A stretch of DNA of 64,000 nucleotides from a virus, in the IMG/VR virus record IMGVR_UViG_3300042546_000155; one strand, given 5' to 3'. The position numbers and the translations under genes were made by a program. Within the stretch, counting starts at the first letter, position 1, and each line of letters begins with the position of its first letter. Positions 55,534 through 64,000 of this stretch are shown one piece after another. The notes beneath the pieces are model-generated. The model was given only the letters and a program-made list of their open reading frames with translations, was not told the origin of the DNA and searched no databases.

Positions 55534-56655
55534 TCATTTCACCACCCGCAGTAGGATTGTATCCATGTTGATACGACCGTTAGCCTTAGCTTCTTTTGTT
55601 GTGATATTGTCCATAACCTTGCGAAGATAAATCTTACCACCTTCAAGCAGAGGCTTGATTACTGCTTCGGGTTTACGAAGTTTTTTGGTGATAGAAGTAG
55701 CTTCATCATATCCCGTAATGGTAGTCCCTCGGACACTAAGGCCCGAATGACCCACGGCATTATACACAGATAGATTGCGAGTTTTAACATTGAACACCCA
55801 AAGTTGTTCAGCACCAATAATAGTCTTGGGATCGACACTCTTAGCATATAGACAATCCTCGTGTTCGACACAATAACTCATTTTAGCCACTAGAACATGG
55901 GCAGGCTTCACCTTCTTCTTACGGGGCTTGCGAACAGCCTGACCCGCAGAATCCAGTTCAACCATATGATCAATGATACGCTTTATGAATAGAACCATGA
56001 TCTTAAGAACCGGCTTACGCCAGTGCTTATACGAGTCAGCCAGTTCTTTGTCTTTGCCTTCGATGGCCTGACAGATTTCTTCGTATTGAGGACGGAAGTG
56101 TTCTGCAATCCTCTTCGCAATTTGCGGTTTAATTCCCTTCTCAAGGGTCCACTTCTTAACATCAAACTGAATAACTCCTTCTTGAAAGAAGACATCCAGT
56201 TGTTCTTCCAGTTCACCGATAAGATCGGATGCCTTGTGATTGATACGATCTTGGATCGAGATTACCTTCGTGACGGGCGCTTCCTCTCCTTCAACCACTT
56301 CATCGCTTCCTGATGCCGAGGATGCGAAGGATCGAATACGCTCAATCGTTGTGTCCCAGAGATTATCAGGGAGAGTGGACCCTGCTTCAAGGAGTCGGCA
56401 GTTCCATCCGATCCAGTTGTTGAACTCATGGGGCTTGACTCGGGAGAGTTTGGTAATGATTTCTTTATCATACTTGATAGACTTGAGGTAGGAGATAGCG
56501 AACTTGAGAGAATCCTCGGAAGAATAGAAGTAGTTAAACCAGGTGTAGGCATTAGATAACTCCACCTGTGTAGAGTCCTCAGTAAGGCTCGGTTCGGGAC
56601 CGAGATACTTTTCATCAGTGAACTTGGGGCGGCGAACAGCGGTAGCCTTTTTCAC
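55534..56655 (-). CDS. Conserved T4-like phage hypothetical protein
   Basis: Likely GTG start at 56655 after AAGGAG; IIGA.QLWVFN.KTR.L, GRIN..TILL. Confidence 0.7.
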   Translation of the reverse strand: MKKATAVRRPKFTDEKYLGPEPSLTEDSTQVELSNAYTWFNYFYSSEDSLKFAISYLKSIKYDKEIITKLSRVKPHEFNNWIGWNCRLLEAGSTLPDNLWDTTIERIRSFASSASGSDEVVEGEEAPVTKVISIQDRINHKASDLIGELEEQLDVFFQEGVIQFDVKKWTLEKGIKPQIAKRIAEHFRPQYEEICQAIEGKDKELADSYKHWRKPVLKIMVLFIKRIIDHMVELDSAGQAVRKPRKKKVKPAHVLVAKMSYCVEHEDCLYAKSVDPKTIIGAEQLWVFNVKTRNLSVYNAVGHSGLSVRGTTITGYDEATSITKKLRKPEAVIKPLLEGGKIYLRKVMDNITTKEAKANGRINMDTILLRVVK

Positions 56656-56665
56656 TTTTTTCTCC

Positions 56666-56959
56666 TTATCCGAAGATGTAGCCATAGTCCTTGAACTCGT
56701 TGATAACACAAATTCCGTCTTCAAGGTATCCATAATCATAGCCCATTTCCTCGGCCTTGTCAAGAGCCTCATTTAAGGAAAAGAACACTTCTGATTTTTC
56801 AAAGACGGATTTGATTGTCTGAATGTCGCCATCATAACGGAAAGTTTCCTCATTAAACTTACCGTAAATGGAATCGATAGCATGAGCATAAGCTACCCGA
56901 TATTCGGGACCCTTTTCACTCTCGGTGAAAAGGACATAGATTCCGTTATCAGCAGACAT
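56666..56959 (-). CDS. Hypothetical protein
   Basis: MSADNGIY...EYRVA motif. Confidence 0.6.
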   Translation of the reverse strand: MSADNGIYVLFTESEKGPEYRVAYAHAIDSIYGKFNEETFRYDGDIQTIKSVFEKSEVFFSLNEALDKAEEMGYDYGYLEDGICVINEFKDYGYIFG

Positions 56960-57195
56960 TATTCTTCCTCCGGAAGATGATTAGAGAAAAAGGTGAAGAT
57001 AACCAGACGGAAGAGCCAATGTAGCATGAAAGGTGCCCAAAGCGGCGATAGAGCCGCTACCCAGGTCCAGTCATCAAGATGGCCAGTTAGTTTAAGACCG
57101 ATAAACAGTAGAGCAAGAGCATCCATGAAATTCACAGGTGCCTGACTTGGGCTCAGATTAATCACTCGCACATTTTCTAGCTTGTTCATGTTCAT
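56959..57195 (-). CDS. Small membrane protein
   Basis: LFIGLKLTG.L..W.W...LSPLW. Confidence 0.65.
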   Translation of the reverse strand: MNMNKLENVRVINLSPSQAPVNFMDALALLFIGLKLTGHLDDWTWVAALSPLWAPFMLHWLFRLVIFTFFSNHLPEEE

Positions 57196-57199
57196 CTAA

Positions 57200-57298
57200 T
57201 TACTTCCTCTTTTGACCTTTAGTCCGACGCATCTTGCGCTTTGTAGATCCTACCTTACGACGACCCTTGCGAGGTCTATTCTTATGTGGCCACGGCAT
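57200..57298 (-). CDS. Highly basic 32-aa peptide, not in ORF track
   Basis: AAGGAG SD; MPWPHKNRPRKGRRKVGSTKRKMRRTKGQKRK. Confidence 0.6.
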   Translation of the reverse strand: MPWPHKNRPRKGRRKVGSTKRKMRRTKGQKRK

Positions 57299-57301
57299 AT
57301 A

Positions 57302-57574
57302 TCACTCCTTCAATAGTTGCTTCACGGAATCAAGACGAAAGGAGCGCCAGCCACCTGCATCGATATCCCATACTGCTTGCACATTGTCATTTAGCTGCCG
57401 AGCATTCTTTGGTACCTGACCATCATACTCGGAAAGCATAGCAGGCTCAACCTGCGGAACATATAGATCGGAAAGTGTGGCTCGCATAGTGCGTTCCGTT
57501 CCGTCTGCCTTTTCAAAAACAACGGTAACAACACCGTTCTTTAGGTCTTCCTTTAGAGCATACTTATCAATCAT
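57302..57574 (-). CDS. SH3/WYL-like beta-barrel protein (DUF2693-like)
   Basis: V.FEKADGTER.M.ATL...VWDI...GWRSFR.D. Confidence 0.7.
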   Translation of the reverse strand: MIDKYALKEDLKNGVVTVVFEKADGTERTMRATLSDLYVPQVEPAMLSEYDGQVPKNARQLNDNVQAVWDIDAGGWRSFRLDSVKQLLKE

Positions 57575-57794
57575 CTTCTTTCTCCCACTCATAATCTTCA
57601 TCTGCTTCATAGACATAAACATCACAGGAAAAATCTTCGTTTACCATTTCGAGCATGGTCGTTTCGGTTTCTCCATCGGAAACTTTCGTTTCACGCAACC
57701 ATTTATCGGTACCGACACATGCATCAGCATATGACGGATAAGTTCCAATTCTAACAGTGCCTAACATAGCAGATTCGAGTTCGGATACCCACAT
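57567..57794 (-). CDS. Acidic hypothetical protein
   Basis: 75 aa, in the operon. Confidence 0.5.
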   Translation of the reverse strand: MWVSELESAMLGTVRIGTYPSYADACVGTDKWLRETKVSDGETETTMLEMVNEDFSCDVYVYEADEDYEWEKEDD

Positions 57795-57797
57795 GCT

Positions 57798-58025
57798 TTA
57801 GTTTCCTTCGCTGAACAATTTTTCTAACTCATTATAGCCCCCAATATACTTTTTGTCAAGTGTTATTATTGGGAAAGTTCGAGCGTCAGGAAACATTTCC
57901 AGGATAGTATCCCGATCAAAATCCTTACCGAGTTTATACTCAGTAAATTCCTTGGCCTTTAGTTTCAGTAGTGTTCTCGCTTTATCGCAAAACACACACT
58001 GGTCTTTTGAATACACTGTAATCAT
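57798..58025 (-). CDS. Glutaredoxin
   Basis: VYSK..CVFC, RTFP.I, IGGY.EL. Confidence 0.9.
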   Translation of the reverse strand: MITVYSKDQCVFCDKARTLLKLKAKEFTEYKLGKDFDRDTILEMFPDARTFPIITLDKKYIGGYNELEKLFSEGN

Positions 58026-58031
58026 TCTTCC

Positions 58032-58430
58032 TCACTTCTTTTTCACATGGGACTTTCTAACTCGCACCATAATCCATTCGTTATAGTATTGCTCGGAGAT
58101 TAGCGCATCCCTATCAAACTGTTCCTTAGCCTCATAATACGACGCTTCGCCTTTGCTCTTACATAGACGGATGATTTCTCGGGTGAACTTCTCCTTACCG
58201 AAGATTTCCACGTGGTGTAAAAGTTCTTTATTGCTGCCATAGTAATCCTGCCAATCGGAGTCGACCTGCTTCTTTACTCGCTTACCTTTCTTCTTGGTAG
58301 TGCGAGTGAATTTGAATAGTTTCTTCCCAATATATTTTCGCCCTGTAGGAACACAGGTGATGCAATATACGAAAGCTTGATAGCCTTCTGGGATTTCTTC
58401 TAAGGGTTTGTTCTCGTATGTCCATGTCAT
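58032..58430 (-). CDS. GIY-YIG endonuclease II (DenA-like)
   Basis: FVYCIT...TGRKYIGKK, SDWQDYYGS, F.REI..LC, YYN.WI. Confidence 0.75.
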   Translation of the reverse strand: MTWTYENKPLEEIPEGYQAFVYCITCVPTGRKYIGKKLFKFTRTTKKKGKRVKKQVDSDWQDYYGSNKELLHHVEIFGKEKFTREIIRLCKSKGEASYYEAKEQFDRDALISEQYYNEWIMVRVRKSHVKKK

Positions 58431-58442
58431 ACGAGTATATAG

Positions 58443-58661
58443 TTATTCTTCGTAGTCTTCTATTTCAGGCGGAAACTTCTCGTTAAACACCTCATCAAAT
58501 GCTGGATCGATATCAAGATAGCCGTCCATGCCTTTGATATCAAACTCCTCAAGCACTTCTAAAAGAACCCTATAGACTTGTTCCCTTTCTAGAATGCCAA
58601 CATCGCTTTCAACTAACTGTTCAATAAACTGTCCAAATATTGCGGCTCGTTCTCCTGCCAT
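58443..58661 (-). CDS. Acidic hypothetical protein
   Basis: 72 aa, coupled. Confidence 0.55.
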   Translation of the reverse strand: MAGERAAIFGQFIEQLVESDVGILEREQVYRVLLEVLEEFDIKGMDGYLDIDPAFDEVFNEKFPPEIEDYEE

Positions 58662-59005
58662 CAGTCTTTATCCTTTCTGAAATAGGACATATAGGCTTGG
58701 AACGAATCTACCATTATATTATAACCGATGTTGGTTATCATCAAAATATTTCTGTACCACATATGAGTGGTACTCCTTGCCAGTATGTCTGGATCTTTTT
58801 CTTTTTTCTTTCGTTTAAATTTCTTTCGTAATAATGTTTTGTCACTTATCATATTCTCGATGTATTGTGTTCTTTTTTCATTCAATACTTGTAGAGTGAG
58901 CAAGGTGGGATCAGGACCCATCACCCTCCTTGCCTTTCTCATTTTCTTTGCTAAGTGTCTAGCAATATGCAACTGTTCATGTAAAATTTCATCCAGTTCA
59001 TTCAT
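58661..59005 (-). CDS. Hypothetical protein
   Basis: 114 aa, coupled. Confidence 0.55.
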   Translation of the reverse strand: MNELDEILHEQLHIARHLAKKMRKARRVMGPDPTLLTLQVLNEKRTQYIENMISDKTLLRKKFKRKKKEKDPDILARSTTHMWYRNILMITNIGYNIMVDSFQAYMSYFRKDKD

Positions 59006-59367
59006 AAAAGGTCCATTGTGAATAATGCACGAACATACTTGTTAGCATCGAACACAATTCGGTTTCTTGCGAATACAACGAAACCAAAGTCGCCCTTGCT
59101 CATTGCTTCATTCATGCTTGTGCCAGTTGTCCATACATCGTCAACAACCAGACGAATAGGGTTCTTAGGGTCAGCATACTTTTCTAATGCTTTGGCTAGC
59201 TTCTCTCCTCCACGAGGAATACCATATACACGACCAAACTGGGTGCGTTCGCTAATCATCTTAGCAAGACATTCCCAATCTTCATCTGTCAAGGCGTCAC
59301 ACTCAATCTTCCAATCAAGTTCCTTGCCAGCATGTGAGGTGAATTTGCCGAGTTGAAATAGGTTCAT
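59002..59367 (-). CDS. Type I phosphoribosyltransferase-like protein
   Basis: GIPRGG and LVVDDVWTTGTS PRPP-binding loop. Confidence 0.75.
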   Translation of the reverse strand: MNLFQLGKFTSHAGKELDWKIECDALTDEDWECLAKMISERTQFGRVYGIPRGGEKLAKALEKYADPKNPIRLVVDDVWTTGTSMNEAMSKGDFGFVVFARNRIVFDANKYVRALFTMDLL

Positions 59368-59720
59368 TGGTTCTGCCCCTTTAGTGTAAAAAGAATCTTT
59401 CTAAATTTGTCTGAAACTTCATAGTTCTTCTGCGAACGATACTCTTGCATATATGCCTCTGAAAGAGCTATCACCATTTGGATGATTTTGTCTGTATCAG
59501 TAATCTTTTGTTCCGCCAGAGAAACTATTCGGTTCAAGTCAACCTTTTCACCTAGGTCTGCAAGACCATTCTGATATTGCGAGAGAAGATGCCTGCCATC
59601 TTCGGCAAGTATCTCTTGCTTTCTTTGTAAAAGGTCATCACGGTAATGGGTTTCCTCATTGACGCCATTCATAATAGCATTTAGAGTTACCCAATCACGC
59701 AATTTTTGTTTCCATGTCAT
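59364..59720 (-). CDS. Hypothetical protein
   Basis: 118 aa, ATGA-coupled. Confidence 0.55.
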   Translation of the reverse strand: MTWKQKLRDWVTLNAIMNGVNEETHYRDDLLQRKQEILAEDGRHLLSQYQNGLADLGEKVDLNRIVSLAEQKITDTDKIIQMVIALSEAYMQEYRSQKNYEVSDKFRKILFTLKGQNQ

Positions 59721-60115
59721 GGTACAATCCTAATTGTTGTATCGGGATCCTGCTTTACGATCTGATATAGAGTAGCAGCATTCCCTGGAGAAAGGCGAAC
59801 GCAGCCGTGAGAAGCGGGTCTGCCCAAAGCACCAACATGAGGAGTAGCGTGAATTGCATAACCACCGCTAAAAAAGATAGAGTGAGGCATTGGGGCATTG
59901 TCGAACTTCTTTGAGTAGTGCATTAGTTGAAGGGAGTAGGGGCGGAAAGTTCCAGTAGGTGTATAATAACCTCGGCGGGCAGTTGAGACGGGCCATTGAT
60001 ACGACCCATAATCACTATCAACCTGCATCAACTGGTGAGACTTGCTGATGGTGATATCTGTCTGTGCCATAGCTGGTGTTGTTAGTAGCATTGCTGCAAT
60101 AAGTAGTTTCTTCAT
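59717..60115 (-). CDS. L,D-transpeptidase (YkuD family) with signal peptide
   Basis: Start MKKLLIAAMLLTTPAMA; WPVSTAR...TP.G, AIHAT...LG.PASHGCVRL. Confidence 0.88.
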   Translation of the reverse strand: MKKLLIAAMLLTTPAMAQTDITISKSHQLMQVDSDYGSYQWPVSTARRGYYTPTGTFRPYSLQLMHYSKKFDNAPMPHSIFFSGGYAIHATPHVGALGRPASHGCVRLSPGNAATLYQIVKQDPDTTIRIVP

Positions 60116-60137
60116 TTCACTTTCTCCATTTTCTTCT

Positions 60138-60386
60138 CTATTTACGATATTTGTCCATAATTGCATTGGCATCATCGTTATGTTGTTGAGCCATTTTTCT
60201 GTGGTGATCCTGAGATATAGGACTCTTAGTGCCCTTTGCTTTAGCGAGTCTATTTGCTTCCATATTTCTAAGAGAAATATATTTTCTTCTATCATTAGAA
60301 TCTGTAATCGACTTAGATTCTTCATCTAAACTTTCTTCCCTAAGAGAACGGAACTTTTCTATGAAACTTTCTTTGATATCGGACAT
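60138..60386 (-). CDS. Hypothetical protein
   Basis: 82 aa, TAGGA SD. Confidence 0.55.
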   Translation of the reverse strand: MSDIKESFIEKFRSLREESLDEESKSITDSNDRRKYISLRNMEANRLAKAKGTKSPISQDHHRKMAQQHNDDANAIMDKYRK

Positions 60387-60400
60387 TTGTAAATCCTATG

Positions 60401-60486
60401 TTTGCTAAATAGAGGTGTAGGTCACAGGGCCGCATACCCTCACCTACTCTAACGCTAACTTGGAGCGCCAGCATGTCTATTTATAG
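60401..60486 (+). promoter_or_regulatory. Structured endonuclease leader, copy A
   Basis: TTTGCTAAATAG...GTAGGT-CAC-AGGG..CCCT-C-ACCTAC-TCTAAC-GCT..GGAGC-GCCAGC-ATGTCTATTTAT. Confidence 0.7.
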
Positions 60487-61123
60487 ATCCCATCAACCAC
60501 AGCGTCTAAATCAACCGAACGGTATGATTCCTCTTCCAAGCAAGGAAGAGTTCCTCCACCTATACCAAGACCAAAACAAATCCCGACAAGAGTTAGCATT
60601 ATACTACAAAGTTCATAAAGGTACAATAGACAACTGGTGTAAAAAGTTTGGTGTAAAGAAAACCAAACAGCAACAGATTGACTTGGCATTACGGAATACT
60701 CCAAAGTTTAACAAAAGGAATGGAAAGTATAGTGAAAGTATTTTCCGCAAACGACCATATCTAAAAGACAAACCTGCCACATTCTACATCATTAGAGTTT
60801 ATAATGATACGGAATCATTTTATAAGTTTGGTATTACCATACACGACGCCAAAACAAGATACAAAGGCCGGTTTAGACAATACAAGTATGAAGTAATAGA
60901 AGAAAAGAAAATGTGTCTGTATGATGCCTTTCTTTTAGAATCCGCTTGCGTAGATTACAAGAACTCTAACAGACACATTTCTTATGAACCTCTACATCAT
61001 TTTGAGGGACATACCGAGTGTGTTAGATGTCACACCCTCCTGCCGAACAAGCCAGGTTTTGCACGCCTTCCGTCTCATCCTCAAACTCTTGGAGAGTGTC
61101 CCAGTCCAAATGGGTTGGGATAG
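60473..61123 (+). CDS. Putative free-standing homing endonuclease (HTH plus GIY-YIG-like domain)
   Basis: SRQELA..Y.V...TI.NW.KKFG (HTH); FYIIR....E.FYKFGIT....RY...E...F.GHTEC; antisense to the surrounding genes. Confidence 0.65.
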   Translation: MSIYRSHQPQRLNQPNGMIPLPSKEEFLHLYQDQNKSRQELALYYKVHKGTIDNWCKKFGVKKTKQQQIDLALRNTPKFNKRNGKYSESIFRKRPYLKDKPATFYIIRVYNDTESFYKFGITIHDAKTRYKGRFRQYKYEVIEEKKMCLYDAFLLESACVDYKNSNRHISYEPLHHFEGHTECVRCHTLLPNKPGFARLPSHPQTLGECPSPNGLG

Positions 61124-62915
61124 TTGGCAACATTGCTTCGTAAAGGTCTTTACTGATTTCTTCATAGGGTGCCTGGCGGTAACTGCCTCCATCATAAGGT
61201 AAGAACGAAACGCCGGACATTTCATCAAAGTGTTCGTAAACCCAAGCACCGACCTTCATCCATTCTTCTTCTTTGACATTGATGGTAACAGATGGCTTAT
61301 GTTCTGCCCATGCTTCCTGATAGACGGCCCATAGTTCCAGGTGCTTGATAGCGTCAATATCATCACGAACAACTGCACCCTTTGGTGCTTTCATTGGGAA
61401 AGAGAATACAGTTGTGGAGTCTGGCTTCATAACATCTGGCTCCCATGGCACACCCTTGTCCTTCATGAACTGTGTTAGTGGATCCTTGTTATCAGCACGG
61501 ACACGACGAATATAATATTGGCTATGGCGAGGATGAATACCAGAAGCCGAGTCACATAACTGAGATACTGTTCCAGAGGGCTTAACACAAGTAATAGCAG
61601 CAGCAGGATTAATCCCAAGTTTATCAGCGAGAACATTGTTTACCTCAACAGCATAGTCACGGAGAGAAGCAAGGCGTTCTTTGATGCCCTTGTCCTCTGG
61701 ATTGTTGAATAGTTTGGAGTCATAGATGCCTGTAAGAGAAACACCAAGTAGTCTTTCTTCTTCGGCGTTCTTAACCCAAATCTTTCTTAGATACGGGAAA
61801 TCAGTGAGAGTAGATTGGAAAGTACCGAGAATAGTAGCAACCTCAATCTTTTCTTTAATCTGTTCAATGGTGTCTGCGGCTCTGATAACCACTTCCGTGA
61901 GGTTGCAAAATCCATATGGTCTAAGGATGATTTCGCTACACGGATTTGTGCCGAATAACTGATCATGATTGCGTCTTCCGTTTCTTTTGGCAATTTTCTG
62001 ACATGCTTCACGACTAAATAATCCTCTCTCTCCTGATTTGCTTTCGTATAGTGAAACCCATTCGGACATGAATGAACCAATTTCTGGCTTCTCATTATAG
62101 ACCGCAGAGTTATTAGACAATGCCCTCTGTGGATTTGCTTCCCACCAACTTCCTGATTTACAATGTCTCATTCTATCGTCGCTAAGGTTAGACAAACTAA
62201 TCATAGCGGAACGACGAACACCACCAACGACCACTACCTCTCCAATTTTACACATTAGGTCATGACATTCCAGCGAAGTCAATCTACGGCCATGGGCATG
62301 TTTGAATGTTCTAACAAAGAACTTGAATAGTTCTGATAGTGGTTCAGGACCAGAAGAACGACCACCAAATGTTTTCAGTGGAGCACCAGCAGGTCTTACC
62401 TTTGATAGATCCCATTTTGGAATTTCTCCCGCATACAATAGAGAGATAAGCATACGAAGTGACTTAGCCCAACCTTCTTTGCTATCACGCACGGAGATAA
62501 TCGTCTCCGAATCAAATAACTTTTCAGGAATCTCCGGTAACTGATTGATGAATTGTCTTTCAACCGAGAACCCTACACCTGTACCGCACAAGAGGATAAA
62601 CATGGCTTCATCAAATGCTTTCGGATCATCAATAGGCAAGAATGAGCAGTTGTATCCGCAGGTATTGTCCCTTTCCAAGGCTTTACCAGCAGTCATCATC
62701 GCTCTCATAGAAGGCATAACCTTCATGTCACGAATAGACTCAAAGATACGACTACGCATAGGCTTCAAATCATAGTTATAGTTTTTTTGAAGATGGTTTT
62801 CCATAAAATCCAAATAACGATTTATGGTTTCTTCCCAGTTCTCTCTACGATTATGTTCTGGTAGATATCTGCTATAGCGGCTTCGGTGTATAAATTCCTG
62901 ATATAATGTATCCAT
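61023..62915 (-). CDS. nrdJ: Class II (adenosylcobalamin-dependent) ribonucleotide reductase
   Basis: YNCSF, GTGVGF, GGVRRSA, TNPCSEI, CNLTEV, VKPSGTVS, C-terminal ACSAGGC; no beta-subunit gene adjacent. Confidence 0.9.
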   Translation of the reverse strand: MDTLYQEFIHRSRYSRYLPEHNRRENWEETINRYLDFMENHLQKNYNYDLKPMRSRIFESIRDMKVMPSMRAMMTAGKALERDNTCGYNCSFLPIDDPKAFDEAMFILLCGTGVGFSVERQFINQLPEIPEKLFDSETIISVRDSKEGWAKSLRMLISLLYAGEIPKWDLSKVRPAGAPLKTFGGRSSGPEPLSELFKFFVRTFKHAHGRRLTSLECHDLMCKIGEVVVVGGVRRSAMISLSNLSDDRMRHCKSGSWWEANPQRALSNNSAVYNEKPEIGSFMSEWVSLYESKSGERGLFSREACQKIAKRNGRRNHDQLFGTNPCSEIILRPYGFCNLTEVVIRAADTIEQIKEKIEVATILGTFQSTLTDFPYLRKIWVKNAEEERLLGVSLTGIYDSKLFNNPEDKGIKERLASLRDYAVEVNNVLADKLGINPAAAITCVKPSGTVSQLCDSASGIHPRHSQYYIRRVRADNKDPLTQFMKDKGVPWEPDVMKPDSTTVFSFPMKAPKGAVVRDDIDAIKHLELWAVYQEAWAEHKPSVTINVKEEEWMKVGAWVYEHFDEMSGVSFLPYDGGSYRQAPYEEISKDLYEAMLPTIPTHLDWDTLQEFEDETEGVQNLACSAGGCDI

Positions 62916-62917
62916 TC

Positions 62918-63475
62918 TTACTTCCTCTTACAATCTTTCCCGTGACCCCATTTTATAAAGTTAGGTCCACTCATTACTTTACCACAAACAGGACATTCCT
63001 TTTTGATTTGAAAATTATGTGTTCCTTCTTTCAATCTTCTATGTGAAGGATTGTTTTCACCTAAAAAGTTATGCGACCCATTTACAACTCTCTTTTTGGC
63101 ATTTTCTGTCTGCCATTCGGAACTAACGAAGATGTGTTCTCCATTTTCAACCAATCTTCTTTGCGTTTTACTTTGAATGTATCCGCCATAAAAATTGTGT
63201 GTTCCGTTTTCTAATCTTTCTTTGTTAGAAAGACGTCCCAACTCCGATTGCTCTTGTGGTGTTAGGCTCAATCGTTTAGTTATCTTATAACAGGCACCGT
63301 AGTCACCATTTATCCAATGCTCCCAGAAATGGTCAACAACAGATAATGCTACAAGATTAGACAACTCGTTATTGTTATGATTGCCATCTATGTGATGAAT
63401 ATCATAACTTCTGCCTTCGGAATCTTTTGGAATAGGACCGTGAGCCTGCTCATACAGGCGACGATAAATAGACAT
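62918..63475 (-). CDS. HNH homing endonuclease
   Basis: Start MSIYRR at 63475; YDIHHIDGNH.NN..SNL.AL...DH; repeated NGTHNF units; C-terminal CPVCG. Confidence 0.85.
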   Translation of the reverse strand: MSIYRRLYEQAHGPIPKDSEGRSYDIHHIDGNHNNNELSNLVALSVVDHFWEHWINGDYGACYKITKRLSLTPQEQSELGRLSNKERLENGTHNFYGGYIQSKTQRRLVENGEHIFVSSEWQTENAKKRVVNGSHNFLGENNPSHRRLKEGTHNFQIKKECPVCGKVMSGPNFIKWGHGKDCKRK

Positions 63476-63545
63476 GCTGGCACTCCCTAAAAGTGTTAGA
63501 GTCCGTGGAGTTCGTACCTCGTGACGGACAACACTATTTAGCAAA
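63464..63545 (-). promoter_or_regulatory. Structured endonuclease leader, copy B
   Basis: TTTGCTAAATAG...GTCCGT-CAC-GAG..CTC-C-ACGGAC-TCTAAC-ACT..GGAGT-GCCAGC-ATGTCTATTTAT. Confidence 0.7.
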
Positions 63546-63554
63546 CCAGCATTT

Positions 63555-63752
63555 TCACTCATGACCAGAATCCTTATTCTGCATAGTAATAGCCCACTCA
63601 GTGAGGTCTTTGTCAAACTCCTTGACCAACGTATCATGAAGTTCTTTTTCAGGGTCAATGCCACATATGCTTTTCAAATCCTTGATCAGTTCTTGTGATA
63701 TCTCGGTCTTATATGTAAGAGTAAGACCATCCCATTCAAACTTACCTATCAT
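63555..63752 (-). CDS. Hypothetical protein
   Basis: MIGKF start, ATGA-coupled to thyX; EL..DLK...GID.EKEL resembles the gp23 C-terminal motif. Confidence 0.5.
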   Translation of the reverse strand: MIGKFEWDGLTLTYKTEISQELIKDLKSICGIDPEKELHDTLVKEFDKDLTEWAITMQNKDSGHE

Positions 63753-64000
63753 GACCAAAACTTCCACCACCATGACTTAGGTTTATCATCTGTCACATAT
63801 AGATCATCTAGATTATCGTAAAGAACTTTCTCAAATTCCTTCCCTAATAGTTGTTGTTTGAAAGCAAGTTCATCATAACCAGTTAATGCGCCTTCTGGAT
63901 ACCAATACTCTTTCAATGACGGGAAGTGTTTTAGAATCTCTTCCTGTGCAGCAAGAGCAACCTGACGGTGTTCTTTCTGTGTGCCTGCTTCGGCTCTAAC
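63749..64000 (-). CDS. thyX: Flavin-dependent thymidylate synthase, C-terminal part (start outside the window)
   Basis: VRAEAGTQKEHRQVA...IL..FP matches the ThyX C-terminus; lies next to nrdJ. Confidence 0.7.
   Translation of the reverse strand, partial: VRAEAGTQKEHRQVALAAQEEILKHFPSLKEYWYPEGALTGYDELAFKQQLLGKEFEKVLYDNLDDLYVTDDKPKSWWWKFWS

Follow-up and report, generated by a model that had tools for sequence, protein, structure and literature searches.

Within the 64,000-nucleotide (nt) stretch of viral DNA recorded as IMGVR_UViG_3300042546_000155 in IMG/VR (hereafter the window), which by its gene content belongs to a T4-like myovirus, a class II ribonucleotide reductase gene (nrdJ) has on each side one copy (A and B) of the same short element, and each copy stands at the start of a free-standing homing-endonuclease gene. 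The element would be a self-contained and portable control unit of ~85 bp, with two T4-type late-promoter motifs facing each other and, between them, a fold that is kept on the strand opposite the nuclease gene. We lean towards a reading in which an antisense RNA from these facing late promoters covers the 5' untranslated region (UTR) of the nuclease mRNA, most likely limiting its translation. The broader proposition, that within a large branch of uncultured T4-like phages the free-standing homing endonucleases carry such an antisense-RNA governor, a compact facing-promoter module whose small RNA sets the nuclease dose, seems to us evenly balanced.

A first-pass annotation of this DNA had listed the motifs common to the two copies, and all of them were found in place: TTTGCTAAATAG (60401-60412, + strand; 63545-63534, - strand), GTCAC, CTCTAAC and GGAG, and an 18-mer, GCCAGCATGTCTATTTAT (60467-60484, +; 63481-63464, -), which occurs twice in the window against 0.04 occurrences expected by chance. 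Translation also confirmed that both open reading frames (ORFs) start with MSIY(R). The distance from the outer late-promoter-like motif CTAAATAG to the ATG is 60 nt in copy A and 58 nt in copy B. The outer stem of a hairpin, P1, reads GTAGGT/ACCTAC in copy A and GTCCGT/ACGGAC in copy B, its inner stem AGGG/CCCT and GAG/CTC, and the stem flanking the Shine-Dalgarno (SD) sequence CGCT/AGCG and CACT/AGTG, respectively. The compensatory nature of these changes, claimed from the two copies, is real, as 42 distinct relatives (see below) have 97.7% of the cells of the mRNA-strand helices paired, compared to 33-46% in slid controls, with double changes at 12 of 14 pairs. The supposed terminal repeats TAAATAG/CTATTTA do form a true inverted repeat, but the better reading is that of two late-promoter motifs directed towards each other; the UAAAUAG/CUAUUUA pairing is possible in all copies but weak.

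The family to which the two copies belong amounts to ~90 distinct copies in ~170 viral contigs, plus 73 metagenome contigs. A search with the 3' 18-mer alone gave 68 viral contigs, 67 of them with the complete cassette, in 42 distinct sequences that all keep the outer motif (as TATAAATA in L049). A pattern for the 5' side (CTAAATAG-N28-40-CTCTAACRCT) gave 116 stretches, including ~40 more distinct copies with variant 3' ends, and also ~15 unstructured chance matches that were used as a negative control, while the 73 metagenome contigs came from a pattern restricted to the middle, P2 part. A covariance model built for the cassette (R1) scores all copies at 50-102 bits; applied to four complete phage genomes (167-329 kb), it detects 2, 3, 7, and 9 copies. 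The building of such a model and the search of metagenomes, both proposed in the first-pass annotation, have thus returned a large family with an association to endonuclease genes. Several copies of the same genome have an identical P1a stem, so that selection for distinct specificities is not clearly visible. In the complete 167-kb genome G002, one cassette (69800-69888) lies directly downstream of a homologue of gp55, the late sigma factor (69061-69564).

Searches of Rfam, of cultured phages, and of prokaryote genomes were negative. An Rfam 15 cmscan of positions 56000-64000, both strands, at E up to 10 found no family over either copy. The sole overlap, with lysM-TM7 at the 5' edge of copy A, is at chance level, its 18.9 bits lying below the gathering score (61.5). 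No true match appeared when both cassette types were compared by BLAST with 50,697 cultured phage records, and the middle pattern had 0 matches in 185,579 prokaryote species genomes, which argues that the cassette is not a prophage or bacterial element. Hybrid cassettes, with the promoter and P1 joined to a different 3' module, were seen at L009:1815-1883, L179 (G004:48010-48112), and L183 (G004:151948-152046). This module, TCTATGTC...CACAGCT(C)ATGTCAAGT, encodes MSS-IY in both G004 copies and MSSTN in L009, and the hybrids suggest that the cassette itself is assembled from exchangeable halves. The stop codon of a co-directional upstream gene often appears to be at or inside CTAAATAG (TAA and TAG, in two frames), as at the approximate offsets seen in L025, L015, L041, L040, and L032; a further role of the cassette may therefore be to end the ORF before it, which Dassa et al. 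(2009) proposed for endonuclease elements that invade a genome.

The association with homing endonucleases of unrelated families is firm. Among the 42 distinct downstream proteins the only shared residues are M-S-I, and Pfam assigned 16 of them to NUMOD3, six to HNH, four to HNH_3, four to SegE_GIY-YIG, and three to the I-TevI DNA-binding domain. In PHROGs, two "homing endonuclease" families took 19 and 9 of these proteins and an "intron-like DNA endonuclease" family five, and many fell into HNH families. The two proteins of the window belong to different families as well, as had been claimed (HNH_3 for gene B; PHROG 681 "endonuclease" and no Pfam family for gene A). With the family at hand and its downstream genes tabulated, the original idea of a portable cassette of late-promoter motif and RNA structure placed on unrelated homing endonucleases is well borne out.

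The covariation indicates which strand is folded. Alignment A5, comprising 89 distinct copies aligned with MAFFT and not fitted to any structure, was read in both orientations. Over 18 pairs, the strand opposite the gene has 99.6% of 1577 cells paired, with double changes at 15 of the 18 and 31-47% in slid controls, whereas the same 18 pairs reach 88.0% on the mRNA strand. Most telling is an 8-bp helix, P2', paired in 99.7% of the cells on the opposite strand vs. 75.7% on the mRNA strand. Read as mRNA strand, P2' in the 89 copies gives 527 Watson-Crick, 172 A·C, and four G·U cells, and these four stem from one mis-registered variant; the exceptions on the mRNA strand in P1 and P2 are all A·C and never G·U. 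The conserved blocks (T)CTAAC and GCCAG(C) are complementary on the mRNA strand only with A·C allowed, while on the opposite strand CUGGCGCU pairs with AGCGUUAG, with two G·U, as the arms of the 8-bp helix. On the antisense strand, the variants of P2' take the routes that would be expected of an RNA, G·U being replaced by A-U, and C-G, by way of U·G, by U-A. P1 covaries as well (P1a 100% and P1b 98.5% paired, double changes in all 10 pairs); in copy A it is Watson-Crick whichever strand is read, and its - strand version would make up the 3' hairpin in the antisense RNA proposed here.

Folding energies point in the same direction. The ensemble energy is -22.1 kcal/mol for the antisense and -17.0 kcal/mol for the mRNA strand, the antisense being lower in 86 of 87 copies, and shuffles of the same composition account for only -1.9 kcal/mol of the difference. 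The antisense-strand folds show two hairpins. As the A·C exceptions of the mRNA strand are G·U on the opposite one, and TCTAAC and GCCAGC pair only there, the comparison of the copies shows the fold to be conserved and selected on the strand opposite the nuclease gene. The structured 5' leader of the first-pass annotation does not stand in that form, since the conserved fold fits the other strand in both pairing and energy. Some further possibilities were tried and discarded. An extension of P1b into its loop was rejected because C·A and U·G at one position indicate loop and not stem; a small opposite-strand ORF starting at the complement of the nuclease ATG region is unconserved (44 aa in copy A, 5 aa in copy B); and the kink-turn, terminator, and tRNA-like readings of P1 were dropped because, by eye, their defining motifs are absent.

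The second conserved component is the pair of promoter motifs. The inner one, ATAAATAG (TCT ATT TAT reversed), has the same consensus as the outer one. It is present as TAAATA in 76 of the 89 copies, with TATATA in seven more, and also where the search pattern did not contain it (TAAATA in 32 of 45 copies plus seven with TATATA; in a second set, 45 plus eight of 62). Its complement in gene A, CTATTTAT, extends from the second base of codon 2 (TCT) through codons 3-4 (ATT TAT). TATTTAT is retained even though the second codon is free to change (S, N, T, Y, D, I, F, P), and at the nucleotide level the inner motif, which occupies codons 2-4 on the opposite strand, explains why unrelated nucleases start with M-x-I-Y. 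The gap separating TAAATA from the first P2' base that is paired measures 6 nt in 55 of the 76 TAAATA copies. T4 late promoters have TATAAATA at about -13 to -6 of the start.

Elsewhere in the window [CA]TAAATA[GA] stands 5-51 nt before several ORFs (28922 on the + strand; 22957, 17625, 4187, 28458, 40629, and 37942 on the - strand), some of them baseplate genes, and none has a P1 hairpin after the motif; these form a candidate set of late promoters for the phage. Homologues of T4 gp55 are found in all four complete cassette-carrying genomes, and since the motif also precedes baseplate genes, a T4-type late-promoter reading appears reasonable. No sigma-70-like site heads either cassette, the lone nearby match (60373-60402, 9/12), just upstream of copy A, being at chance level.

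From these elements the following scheme can be proposed. The outer motif would give rise to the nuclease mRNA, starting at or just before P1, with a 5' UTR of ~55 nt comprising, in this order, P1, YCUAAC, a short helix around the SD, and GCCAGC-AUG. The inner motif, ~65 bp away from the outer one (both [C/A]TAAATAG), would fire outward, from a predicted start immediately next to the AUG, to produce an antisense RNA of ~65-75 nt in which a 5' hairpin (P2') is followed by a second, bulged hairpin at the 3' side (P1') and by the tail CUAUUUAG(U), which is rich in U. P2' would have 8 bp with two G·U and hold part of the anti-SD in its loop; in copy A this loop contains part of the complement to the SD GGAG, and on the + strand the pairing at the same site is limited to (C)GCU/AGC(G), around the SD. 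The tail would be the complement of the outer promoter (in copy A the outer motif reads CUAUUUAG on the - strand), and the U fraction after P1' is 0.45 vs. 0.24 in the body. Each promoter's complement would consequently have a second job, one as the first codons of the nuclease and the other as the tail of the antisense RNA. The latter would be fully complementary to the mRNA 5' UTR, its two loops being exact complements of the two mRNA loops, and by analogy with RNA-OUT of IS10 (see below) it would most likely pair with the leader and limit translation of the nuclease. Such pairing may also trigger cleavage, and convergent transcription may interfere.

Several points weigh against this antisense scheme. 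P1 pairs equally well on both strands, and the mRNA carries it too and may use it. About 15% of the copies have TATATA or a displaced motif in place of TAAATA. The U-rich tail begins 2-4 nt past the P1' stem, not directly after it, and a terminator scan of both strands finds nothing canonical after P1 or at either cassette. The predicted start positions depend on the -13 to -6 rule of T4, and the firing of both promoters and the ends of both RNAs are deduced from the sequence. In 28 of 85 copies, including copy A with its divergent 82-aa ORF, the outward promoter may serve the divergent gene. Finally, an antisense RNA can protect an mRNA instead of repressing it, in the cases that PMC3113571 describes, so mRNA protection or transcriptional interference may be alternative effects, and the choice of repression over protection is one that we infer.

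The nearest competing explanation is a cis-acting 5' leader of the mRNA, which would work through a hairpin that stabilises the 5' end, through a helix that presents the SD, or as a binding site for a protein, the opposite strand being without function. It would agree with P1 being Watson-Crick on the mRNA too, with a predicted late start at or within a few bases of the first paired base, with a covarying helix of 3-4 bp that has the SD in its loop, and with the conserved CRC bulge. We consider it unlikely, given that 172 of 712 P2' cells are A·C on the mRNA strand with no genuine G·U, that one column pair is unpaired there in all 89 copies, and that the conservation of TCTAAC, GCCAGC, and TATTTAT finds no explanation on that strand, besides the better folding of the opposite one in nearly all copies. 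The outward promoter could also belong to the host phage, restoring late transcription behind an endonuclease inserted in the opposite direction, with the fold as leader or stabiliser of the outward mRNA. T4 endonuclease genes do carry promoters for their neighbours (PMC2988022), a divergent ORF begins within ~20-190 nt (mostly <75 nt) in the 28 copies just mentioned, and the 82-aa ORF beside copy A (60386-60138) starts 18 nt outside the cassette. However, the neighbour on the outer side is co-directional in 57 of 85 copies, copy B among them, so that there the outward RNA is not another gene's leader and would be antisense to the 3' end of the neighbour; to this explanation we give little probability.

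Masking of read-through transcripts, as in T4, has to be weighed especially for copy B, where an upstream arm, AUGCUGG (ATGCTGG, 63553-63547, - strand), pairs with CCAGCAU over the start codon. The pairing had already been pointed out and holds, the read-through RNA folding at -38.2 kcal/mol (z = -3.5). On the + strand, a 75-nt fold of copy B that includes CCAGC (63546-63550) has an alternative end-to-end pairing competing with P2'. In copy A the arm is absent, the neighbour is divergent, and the extended fold has z = -0.5. Variants of the arm recognised by eye among the relatives (GUGCUGG, GUGCUG, UGUUGG, and GGCUGGC) occur in ~10 of 89 copies, with the pairing kept through G·U on the mRNA strand. 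In its strict form this explanation holds that only late transcripts are translated, read-through ones being masked by UAAAUAG/CUAUUUA, plus AUGCUGG/CCAGCAU where present, and that the inner hairpins are a structured spacer. The mechanism is established for I-TevI, I-TevII, I-TevIII, segB, and mobE of Aeh1 (PMC2988022), the text of Dassa et al. (PMC2677866) gives hairpins with TATAAATA before free-standing endonuclease genes in ocean metagenomes, and the z-score of copy B agrees with it. The accessibility of SD/AUG is 0.38 in read-through vs. 0.53 in late RNAs and lower in 38 of 43 copies, figures of little weight since they come without a length-matched shuffled control. Copy A would have no read-through transcript, given its divergent neighbour, and its extended fold is unremarkable; the arm is found in just the ~10 copies, and a spacer needs no G·U-specific helices conserved on the opposite strand. 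As the sole function of the cassette masking thus seems improbable, although the arm of copy B is probably the known T4/Aeh1 mask, in which case that copy would have two control layers.

One further possibility is a DNA-level element, its inverted repeats and hairpins acting either in single-stranded DNA or as homology patches that swap endonuclease genes, with no part played by RNA. A common cassette is joined to unrelated genes, hybrids exist (L009, L179, and L183), and T4-like phages have in the PeSL promoter/stem-loop motifs a means of shuffling of this kind (PMC4122927). Homology patches, however, need identity and not compensatory change, while the stems here vary freely with pairing kept, and the strand-specific G·U pattern is typical of RNA, which makes this the least probable explanation and a very unlikely one. 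The spread of the cassette may nevertheless be due to recombination at its conserved ends.

The features of the two copies and the genes around them are listed in Table 1. The T4-like genes of the window include the baseplate wedge and hub, a gp32-like single-stranded DNA-binding protein, a gp59-like helicase loader, PhoH, RtcB, and DNA ligase, and no close cultured phage relative of the window was found.

Table 1. Positions of the cassette copies, their parts, and the adjoining genes in the window.
Feature	Position	Strand	Remarks
Copy A	60401-60486	+	
Outer late-promoter-like motif, copy A	60405-60412	+	CTAAATAG; faces endonuclease gene
Hairpin P1, copy A	60417-60447	both	GTAGGT-CAC-AGGG-loop CCGCATA-CCCT-C-ACCTAC; from folding and covariation
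Helix P2' (8 bp), copy A	60449-60471	-	CUGGCGCU (60471-60464) with AGCGUUAG (60456-60449); two G·U
Predicted antisense start, copy A	~G 60472	-	one base ahead of nuclease ATG
Endonuclease gene A	60473-61123	+	216 aa, begins MSIYR; PHROG 681 "endonuclease" match, 9.6e-10; zero Pfam families matched
Inner late-promoter-like motif, copy A	60477-60484	-	ATAAATAG; reverse complement of CTATTTAT
nrdJ-like class II ribonucleotide reductase	61023-62915	-	Pfam Ribonuc_red_lgC, RNR-II_ins_dom, RNR_Alpha
Endonuclease gene B	62918-63475	-	185 aa, begins MSIYRRLYEQ; Pfam HNH_3, 1.9e-8
Copy B	63545-63464	-	
Inner late-promoter-like motif, copy B	63464-63471	+	ATAAATAG; antisense to gene B, inside codons 2-4
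Predicted antisense start, copy B	~G 63476	+	
Helix P2', copy B	63477-63499	+	CUGGCACU (63477-63484) with AGUGUUAG (63492-63499); loop CCCUAAA
Hairpin P1, copy B	63501-63529	both	GTCCGT/ACGGAC, GAG/CTC; 3-nt bulge CAC (-) / GUG (+)
Outer late-promoter-like motif, copy B	63534-63541	-	CTAAATAG; faces gene B
Upstream arm AUGCUGG, copy B	63547-63553	-	pairs with CCAGCAU over start codon in read-through mRNA

A near-identical contig (L001) contains copy A and gene A and is missing gene B together with its cassette. The 5' ~900 nt of nrdJ beside the HNH insertion (62000-62915 vs. 964-1850 in L001) are ~75% identical between both contigs, compared to ~100% over the adjoining 4 kb. The divergent part resembles a tract of co-conversion or an allele imported from elsewhere, and as the usual footprint of endonuclease-driven gene conversion it would show that cassette and gene move as a unit; by its position beside the insertion, the target of the HNH enzyme is probably the thyX-nrdJ junction or the start of nrdJ. 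The 3' ends of gene A (+) and nrdJ (-) converge and share 101 nt (61023-61123), ~33 codons of each, and L001 shows the same arrangement. Between the thyX-like gene and gene B there is a 72-aa ORF (63555-63773, - strand) which overlaps the 3' end of thyX and lies in a region missing from L001. In Pfam it weakly resembles Gp23, the major capsid protein of T4, at 5.4e-5 and with 23.2 bits, below the cutoff (24.4). Possibly this ORF is a remnant that the mobile gene brought with it.

Further upstream, a SegE-type GIY-YIG gene (58032-58430, - strand, Pfam 6.6e-35) is cassette-free and abuts its upstream gene directly. Just past it, in a glutaredoxin-like gene (57800-58100), the identity between the window and L001 drops from 100% to ~75-89%, what appears to be a second mosaic boundary adjoining an endonuclease gene. 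In the phage protein encoded at 59717-60325 (- strand), Pfam recognises an L,D-transpeptidase domain of the YkuD type (1.4e-16).

Homing endonucleases are DNA-cutting enzymes that a phage can harbour only as long as they are expressed late and at a low level. In T4 and Aeh1, where their control is known, it takes the form of individual mRNA hairpins. If the antisense reading is true, the cassette, which serves at least five endonuclease families, represents a new and very common phage regulatory RNA family present on hundreds of contigs with up to nine copies per genome, and a general, undescribed way by which these selfish genes stay tolerable to the phage, the shared M-x-I-Y start of unrelated nucleases being explained at the same time. 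As a compact, portable module of convergent promoters it is directly testable, and R1 and A5 provide a sequence handle with which metagenomes can be searched for free-standing endonuclease genes and for the sites where these have inserted.

Among the closest known systems are the leaders of T-even phages and Aeh1, in which a late promoter within an mRNA hairpin controls the endonuclease genes I-TevI, I-TevII, I-TevIII, and segB, and mobE of Aeh1 (PMC2988022). Both arrangements have a T4-type late promoter right before the homing-endonuclease gene and RNA pairing over the ribosome site, and copy B even has the matching upstream arm. However, those leaders are single, gene-specific hairpins of the mRNA strand, while the cassette has a shared, covarying, two-hairpin fold on the opposite strand and a promoter motif in the first codons. 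Dassa et al. 2009 (PMC2677866) describe in their text hairpins with TATAAATA and two complementary conserved motifs before free-standing GIY-YIG and Vsr-like genes, which resemble the cassette in coming from uncultured phage loci (including nrdJ and nrdA), in preceding different endonuclease families, and in containing a late-promoter motif. There they are read as mRNA hairpins of the Aeh1 type, with no strand test, covariance model, or antisense promoter in the main text, and our comparison with them is by description only.

A precedent for the antisense reading is CfrI, a ~225-nt antisense RNA of the cyanophage S-PM2 (Millard et al. 2010, as given in PMC2984593), experimentally detected in a T4-like phage and overlapping a free-standing homing-endonuclease gene. 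It is longer, links the endonuclease gene with psbA, and is not described in that account as a portable cassette; a search of the whole S-PM2 genome with R1 was negative at E <= 1. PeSL cassettes, made up of an early promoter and a terminator stem-loop (PMC2839356, PMC4122927), are likewise short conserved promoter/stem-loop modules that recur in T4-like genomes at gene-swap junctions. They are not tied to endonucleases, whereas the element described here has late motifs on both strands and reaches into the coding sequence, and the sigma-70 promoter fused to a terminator by which PeSL are recognised was not found in it. A literature search for a shared antisense cassette of endonuclease genes found no description of one.

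In mechanism, an analogue is RNA-OUT of IS10/Tn10, where an outward promoter in the 5' end of the transposase gene makes a stable stem-loop antisense RNA over the ribosome site of RNA-IN. RNA-OUT belongs to the transposase of a bacterial insertion sequence with sigma-70 promoters and has no homology to the cassette in sequence or structure, so that the likeness is one of mechanism only. The cassette shares two features with that type of control, namely, at the sequence level, an outward promoter motif inside the 5' end of the regulated gene and, by computation, a covarying fold specific to the opposite strand that spans the SD.

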